Positions 1 through 477 of a stretch of DNA of 64,000 nt are shown in pieces; the first letter of the stretch is position 1; every line of letters begins with the position of its first letter. The position numbers and the translations under genes are program-made. The stretch comes from Escherichia coli (GTDB lineage: Bacteria > Pseudomonadota > Gammaproteobacteria > Enterobacterales > Enterobacteriaceae). The stretch is taken from NCBI RefSeq assembly GCF_044647545.1, contig NZ_CP172818.1; one strand, 5' to 3'. The notes under the pieces are model-generated. The model did no database searches. It saw only the letters and a list, made by a program, of their open reading frames with translations, and was not told where the DNA came from.

Positions 1-477
1 CATATACACTCCAATATAATCATAGAATGTAAACAAGTATTCTCTGGTGTGTCTGTATGTTGGTCTTATCTATAAAAAAACTCAATTTAGTAATACTTAA
101 ACACTTTATGTAGATTTTATTAATTAATACATCTACAAAATACTTTCACCACTTCCCAACAAAAAAACATGCGAATTATCAACAAAAAAACAAACTATTA
201 TAATCAACAAAAATGAATTGCTTATAAAGCACACTAAAAAAAATTATAATGACCTTACCATCATTTATTGCTAAAATTTAATATTAATTAAACAAAAATA
301 TATATTCAAGACACAAACATTACTTCTTTATTTTATTACGGATCATAATGGGAAAAATAATAACTACGAGAATTATTAAATATTAACAAACATTTCAAGA
401 CAAGAGAAAAGAATGGAAAAAGATTGTATGACGGAGAAACTGCCCGGTGTACGCGCACGTAACCGGGCATTGATTGC
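1..477 (-). promoter_or_regulatory. Very AT-rich non-coding region; likely promoter/regulatory region of a leftward gene whose ATG is the reverse complement of positions 1-3 (yfcV-like fimbrial operon start)
   Basis: No ORF of 60 aa or more; strong A/T bias with many A-tracts; positions 1-12 reverse-complement to GGAGTGTATATG (RBS-like GGAG then ATG running out of the window); K-12 synteny places a fimbrial operon next to sixA. Confidence 0.4.

Follow-up and report, generated by a model that had tools for sequence, protein, structure and literature searches.

Results

Genomic context of the AT-rich block

The window analyzed here is a 64,000-nucleotide (64-kb) stretch of Escherichia coli DNA, and the region under study is its first 477 bp. 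The right-hand boundary of this AT-rich block is sixA (positions 478 to 963, minus strand), a 161-aa ORF whose name (phosphohistidine phosphatase) is the RefSeq annotation in all listed matches. Beyond sixA lie fadJ (1166 to 3310) and fadI (3310 to 4620), both on the minus strand. Window bases 1 to 1000 match 5,425 of the 5,426 complete E. coli genomes, but the AT-rich part is covered in only about 1,220. The nearest genome is that of FDAARGOS_497. It is 100% identical to the window over 1 to 291, its sixA DNA is essentially identical (as back-calculated from the alignment identities), no differences were recorded from about 420 to 7250, and there are no mismatches over 38 kb further right.

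A minus-strand, seven-gene chaperone-usher operon sits directly to the left of the window-equivalent DNA in every relative examined. We saw this operon in FDAARGOS_497 and in two assemblies picked by the exact FadJ protein. The order of its genes (read in L001, L003, and L004) is fimbrial, usher, PapD chaperone, three further fimbrial genes, and DUF2544/YfcO, followed by smrB. The first gene encodes a 188-aa fimbrial subunit of the PF00419 family with 72% amino acid identity to K-12 YfcV (188 and 187 aa, respectively), while the chaperone and YfcO are 74% and 44% identical to their K-12 counterparts. The K-12 gene order, yfcOPQRSUV-sixA, matches this arrangement, and the K-12 yfcV-sixA spacer has the same position between sixA and the first yfc gene on the same strand. 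The usher gene is intact in FDAARGOS_497, whereas yfcU of K-12 is a pseudogene. Thus, the first-pass annotation was right in placing a yfcV-like fimbrial operon next to sixA, with sixA, fadJ, and fadI in the window and the operon to the left in all relatives.

The window itself holds the sixA side only, and the position of yfcV was read from relatives in which window 1 to 291 is exact or differs by a few bases. The full sixA-yfcV spacer is about 567 bp long in FDAARGOS_497, with a GC content of 0.26, and 92 bp of it lie to the left of the window. The AT-rich spacer therefore extends 92 bp beyond the edge in the relatives, and the earlier description of a 477-bp block opening at the window start does not hold. 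As judged from composition and from the relatives, positions 1 to 425 (minus strand), the distal ~425 bp of the ~567-bp spacer, are the AT-rich upstream regulatory region of the UPEC-type, yfcV-first yfc operon, because the operon adjoins directly to the left in every relative.

The locus varies among the carriers of this allele. The yfcV homologue of IHE3034 (L007, 146 to 709) carries a pseudogene annotation, and in the ST131 strain DA33135 (L008, 1 to 62), the usher is annotated as truncated; therefore, the operon is not intact in all carriers. In E. coli p1-49 (L010, 1566 to 2330), an IS1 is inserted in the AT-rich spacer at the equivalent of window position ~65, and the usher is cut short by another IS1, so that the yfc locus of this strain is rearranged. 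Outside the window, to the left of the operon (L001, 459 to 2460), genes for an AAA-family ATPase (SMC_N/AAA_15/AAA_21 matches) and a 219-aa hypothetical protein were observed. The pair sits between smrB and yfcO in genomes with the window's allele and is absent from K-12; it may be a small defence-type insertion.

Two observations concern other parts of the window. Downstream of fadL, positions 7250 to 7750 form a second AT-rich stretch (GC ~0.30) with 33 differences from FDAARGOS_497, mostly substitutions, and the BLAST segments overlap at 7394 to 7524; such a pattern suggests an ordinary patch of recombination or a difference between repeat copies. Positions 10504 to 14342 (~3.8 kb), beside a tRNA-Arg gene after yfdC, are missing from FDAARGOS_497. 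A phage-type integrase is found at the tRNA-Arg spot in other assemblies (L004 and L005), and the segment is probably an element integrated at the tRNA.

Composition and coding capacity of the block

The GC content is 0.268 over positions 1 to 477, 0.231 over 1 to 425, 0.577 over 426 to 477, and 0.482 over the whole window. The description of the entire 477 bp as extremely AT-rich is therefore correct for 1 to 425 but not for 426 to 477. The 425-bp stretch starting at position 1 has the lowest GC of 63,576 such stretches in the window; in 200-bp steps, GC stays at 0.20 to 0.26 over 1 to 400 and is ~0.5 from 500 on. The TpA density of the block is the highest in the window (0.127 versus a median of 0.047, 2.7-fold). 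Four of the 12 AT-only runs of at least 15 bp in the 64 kb fall in the block. A/T tracts do dominate it, as proposed earlier, with 13 tracts of at least 4 bases compared to a median of 5 per 477 bp.

The block had also been called curved-DNA-like. Using a wedge model of our own making, we find two short curvature peaks above the 99th percentile (75 to 82 and 269 to 275), which agree with that description, but the mean predicted curvature of the block reaches only the 88th percentile of the window, and the A-tracts, spaced by 23, 25, and 27 bp, are out of helical phase. Curvature as a distinguishing property of the block is thus weakly supported by this model. Around an AT-only core, we also observed an inverted repeat, TTATGTAGAT-N15-ATCTACAAAA (106 to 140). 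Its left arm, TGTAGATTT.ATTAAT, is among the few motifs common to the K-12 spacer, and the repeat may for this reason be a candidate protein-binding site.

The block has little room for a gene. The longest open frame in any of its frames has at most 48 codons, and the ORF listing gives just two mechanical ORFs of 33 aa (133 to 234, minus strand) and 44 aa (336 to 470, minus strand), in line with the earlier claim that 1 to 477 contain no ORF. RefSeq has no annotation under the block in 30 genomes among the matches listed, and an Rfam search of window 1 to 1300 at permissive thresholds found no family.

The ATG at the window edge is not the start of yfcV

Window positions 1 to 12 read CATATACACTCC, and the reverse complement is GGAGTGTATATG. 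An ATG on the minus strand (3 to 1) is thus preceded by GGAG at window 12 to 9, and the RBS-like motif with an ATG reported from the first pass is truly present. It had been taken for the start of a gene that runs out of the window. We extended this frame leftward and translated it in seven relatives that carry the window's allele (L001, L003, L004, L007, L008, L009, and L010), among them ST95, ST131, and canine lineages. Window 1 to 291 is matched exactly, up to the edge, by L001, L003, L004, and IHE3034, and the other three differ by a few bases. In all seven, the edge frame reads ATG TTC AAT GGC TAA (MFNG*), as in FDAARGOS_497, whose minus strand is GGAGTGTATATG TTC AAT GGC TAA. No ORF continues past the fourth codon, and the gene start proposed at the edge must be withdrawn.

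The true yfcV ATG lies 92 bp left of window position 1 in all seven relatives, that is, 94 nt downstream of the edge ATG and out of frame with it. It has its own AAGGA ribosome-binding site and reads AAGGACAAATAATG and then MSKFAKTAIAAAMVMGAVVSSSAFA, a signal peptide, in all seven. The annotated fimbrial CDS of FDAARGOS_497 is likewise preceded by AAGGACAAATA, and its product begins with MSKFAKTAIAAAMVMGAVVSSSAFA, a typical signal peptide.

Two functional readings of the edge motif were weighed against chance. If GGAG-N5-ATG (window 12 to 1) were the fimbrial RBS and start codon, the non-coding block would be exactly 477 bp long. The motif exists and is well spaced, and GGAG is kept in five of the seven relatives. 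But ST131-type genomes have GGAATG instead of GGAGTG, the frame stops at four codons in 7/7, and the annotated CDS, which has an AAGGA and a signal peptide of its own, begins 94 nt later and in a different frame; we give this reading practically no credence. A functional upstream mini-ORF or leader peptide tuning yfcV expression would agree with two observations: MFNG is retained, from ATG to TAA, in each of the seven carriers of the allele, and a Shine-Dalgarno-like GGAG stands before it. The conservation of MFNG carries little weight, because these genomes are 91 to 100% identical across the region anyway. Moreover, at the position homologous to the MFNG start, K-12 lacks an ATG, and an unrelated 34-codon frame opens 6 nt upstream. 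Lacking conservation in K-12, the leader peptide was rejected as very unlikely. As the sequence comparison indicates, the edge ATG is a chance four-codon frame and not a fimbrial start codon.

A GC-rich hairpin follows sixA

The GC-rich right end of the block holds a hairpin (441 to 469, minus strand) that starts 9 nt after the sixA stop codon and was found both as an inverted repeat and by RNA folding. It consists of an 8-bp perfect inverted repeat, TGCCCGGT/ACCGGGCA, with an inner extension. The minus-strand RNA folds at -18.8 kcal/mol (z = -3.5), and none of 200 shuffles was as stable. The tail after the hairpin is AGUUUCUCCGU, a weak U-tract, and the terminator scan made no call because no T-run follows the hairpin in this U-poor tail. 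The hairpin is a probable sixA transcription terminator or RNA-stabilizing stem. The hairpin that K-12 has at this place after sixA is a different one.

The yfc allele of the window is deeply divergent from that of K-12

The operon and spacer show 71% DNA identity to K-12, compared to 95.5% for sixA-fadJ, and the break falls within a few bases of the sixA stop. This difference in identity, with its break near the sixA stop, points to an old allelic replacement of operon and spacer, as far as sequence comparison can tell. The coding GC of the operon is 0.53, which is normal and as high as in the flanks, and Yfc belongs to the core-associated fimbrial types, occupying this locus in nearly every E. 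coli (PMC3559732). Consequently, the earlier statement that the operon was horizontally acquired is overstated; what stands of it is the deep divergence of the allele. Only GIST, among five horizontal-transfer predictors, calls the yfc island foreign (PMC3661553).

Both spacers are long and AT-rich (567 bp with GC 0.26 in FDAARGOS_497 versus 680 bp with GC 0.32 in K-12). Both alleles have a hairpin right after sixA, and the last ~25 nt before the yfcV ATG are conserved. Apart from these likenesses, the K-12 spacer can barely be aligned to that of the window: column identity averages 69%, and there are large indels.

Among the 5,426 complete genomes, 1,248 (~23%) carry the window's allele. Its carriers are B2/F genomes such as IHE3034, Nissle 1917, ATCC 11775, ST131, and ST648, and those among the matches listed come mostly from human and animal clinical sources. 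CFT073 (c2884 yfcV) is assumed here to carry the same allele type, on the basis of the yfcV marker literature; Spurbeck et al. reportedly used yfcV as a PCR marker in 2012. The gene is used as a UPEC/NMEC marker (PMC9765037), and the window's allele is presumably the yfcV variant used as the UPEC marker.

A patch at 292 to 420 is private to the window

Between positions 292 and 420, the window differs from every carrier genome of the UPEC-type yfc locus. Alignment with FDAARGOS_497 gives 13 indel events and 2 substitutions in this patch, with identical flanks. Ten bases are lost in 292 to 367 and 11 are gained in 389 to 420 (net +1 bp), and the patch creates the only GATC of the block, at 341. 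All 1,220 genomes with the allele have 86.0% identity to window 280 to 440. Four diverse alleles share one sequence at the patch, bar two small deletions in the ST131 genome, and the genomes found by the exact FadJ protein all have the common spacer sequence. Natural alleles differ mostly by substitutions (3 to 17 substitutions versus 2 to 6 indel events). A recombination donor was sought in the 5,426 complete E. coli genomes, none of which exceeds 86% identity, and k-mers of the patch have no exact match in the genome-contig or metagenome-contig collections that were searched.

Ordinary evolution of the patch is unlikely because its flanks show essentially no divergence. It is most likely an assembly artefact, namely an unpolished or low-quality stretch. 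We see a small chance that the patch is real and reflects a local mutation burst, or a micro-conversion from an unsampled donor, in the distal yfc regulatory region. If real, the patch would change how the UPEC-type yfc fimbriae are silenced or expressed in the source strain.

Promoter-like sites and probable H-NS silencing

A scan with our own consensus gave a best sigma-70-like match in the yfcV direction of TAAGCA-16-TATAAT (9/12; 224 to 197, minus strand), which is a candidate only. It sits ~290 nt upstream of the fimbrial ATG, and its -10 hexamer falls within the palindrome ATTATAAT (197 to 204), which is repeated at 243 to 250. A simple hexamer scan found four promoter-like sites in 477 bp, placing the block in the top 3% of windows. 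Composition-matched shuffles are expected to contain 3.2 such sites, so there is no enrichment. The K-12 SELEX promoter, TTGAAA-17-TATAGT, has no counterpart in the window's allele; it belongs to an insertion specific to K-12. With up to two mismatches allowed, positions 1 to 477 contain no match to TCGATAAATT, the high-affinity motif of H-NS. This nucleation motif is not obligatory for H-NS binding.

The K-12 yfcV(-)/sixA(-) spacer belongs to a set of 78 promoter islands (2453647_489; Panyukov and Ozoline 2013, PMC3661553). Such islands, which PlatProm recognizes by densely packed, overlapping promoter-like start points, are bound by RNA polymerase yet almost untranscribed, with H-NS covering them, and the yfcV/sixA island is marked as H-NS-bound in the ChIP data of Kahramanoglou and Oshima (PMC3661553). 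The same K-12 spacer has an RpoD-holoenzyme SELEX peak and an "HNS" flag (PMC3946193). The promoter islands of yad, yeh, sfm, ybg, elf, and ecp are likewise AT-rich spacers, each preceding the gene for the major subunit in a cryptic fimbrial operon (PMC3661553). The yfc spacer differs from them in being called foreign by GIST alone and in the normal GC of the operon that it controls. The yfc fimbriae are functional but cryptic (PMC3559732). In CFT073, overproduction of TosR, a PapB-family protein, raises yfcV by log2 5.2, and the authors of that study proposed that TosR acts against H-NS and Lrp where the DNA is AT-rich (PMC5956150). In K-12, overproduction of BolA raises yfcV (PMC4337573).

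The idea that the block is an H-NS-silenced promoter region stands in part. The AT content, the position, and the H-NS-bound K-12 spacer (PMC3661553, PMC3946193) agree with it, but the published occupancy of H-NS and RNA polymerase was measured in K-12, while the window's allele is known from its sequence. The K-12 ChIP result transfers by analogy only, because the window's allele aligns weakly with the K-12 spacer. From composition and position, H-NS silencing at the window's allele is a reasonable reading; we infer both the silencing and the promoter position for this allele and take the occupancy from the K-12 literature.

Two other readings of the block were considered. The block could be a functionless remnant of foreign DNA, an AT-rich spacer that neither acts as a promoter nor binds H-NS. 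This would fit the number of promoter-like sites, which is no higher than in shuffles, the H-NS motif search with no match, and the crypticity of yfc in the laboratory (PMC3559732). Yet the operon needs a promoter, and the sixA-yfcV gap offers no other upstream space. The yfcV mRNA is inducible in CFT073 (PMC5956150) and K-12 (PMC4337573), the spacer is 91 to 95% conserved across ~1,215 genomes, and its K-12 counterpart binds RNA polymerase and H-NS (PMC3946193, PMC3661553), all of which make a functionless spacer unlikely. Many fimbrial operons are phase-variable, and the block has several imperfect inverted repeats (for instance 107 to 129 and 282 to 304, with 78% complementarity), so a phase-variation switch was also weighed, be it an invertible element of the fimS kind or a pap-type GATC switch under Dam and Lrp. 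But the inverted repeats of the block are low-complexity AT sequence, neither a recombinase nor a papI/papB-like gene adjoins the block in relatives, and only one orientation is seen among five aligned alleles. GATC is absent from the spacer of the common allele; the block in the window contains one copy, at 341, which the private patch introduced. A fimS-like switch was rejected because the repeats are low-complexity AT sequence and for the lack of an adjoining recombinase in relatives. A pap-like Dam/Lrp switch was rejected as well, since it requires two GATC sites and papI/papB-type regulators, and the block has at most one GATC and, in relatives, no adjoining regulator gene. Phase variation at this block is thus highly improbable.

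Discussion

Taken together, the block is very probably most of the sixA-yfcV spacer of a UPEC-type (B2/F-type) yfc allele, composed of the sixA hairpin and a putatively H-NS-silenced, AT-rich promoter region. Under this reading of the spacer, positions 1 to 425 and the 92 bp beyond the edge would form an extremely AT- and TpA-rich regulatory region that carries one or more yfc promoters and a long 5′ leader. Most likely, H-NS (with StpA) would polymerize over the AT-rich tract and keep the operon silent under ordinary growth. AT-binding antagonists, for example PapB-family proteins such as TosR, or conditions that weaken H-NS would lead to derepression. In positions 426 to 477, the GC-rich hairpin would end or stabilize the sixA transcript.

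The region is ordinary and of an already described kind; the locus, its AT-richness, and its occupancy by H-NS and RNA polymerase in K-12 have all been published. The useful outcome of this work is a set of corrections: the edge ATG is no gene start, the spacer is ~567 bp long and not 477 bp, and the final ~50 bp of the block belong to the sixA hairpin. The window presumably carries the yfc allele that serves as a UPEC marker, and the regulation of that allele bears on the routine question of why yfcV marks uropathogens.
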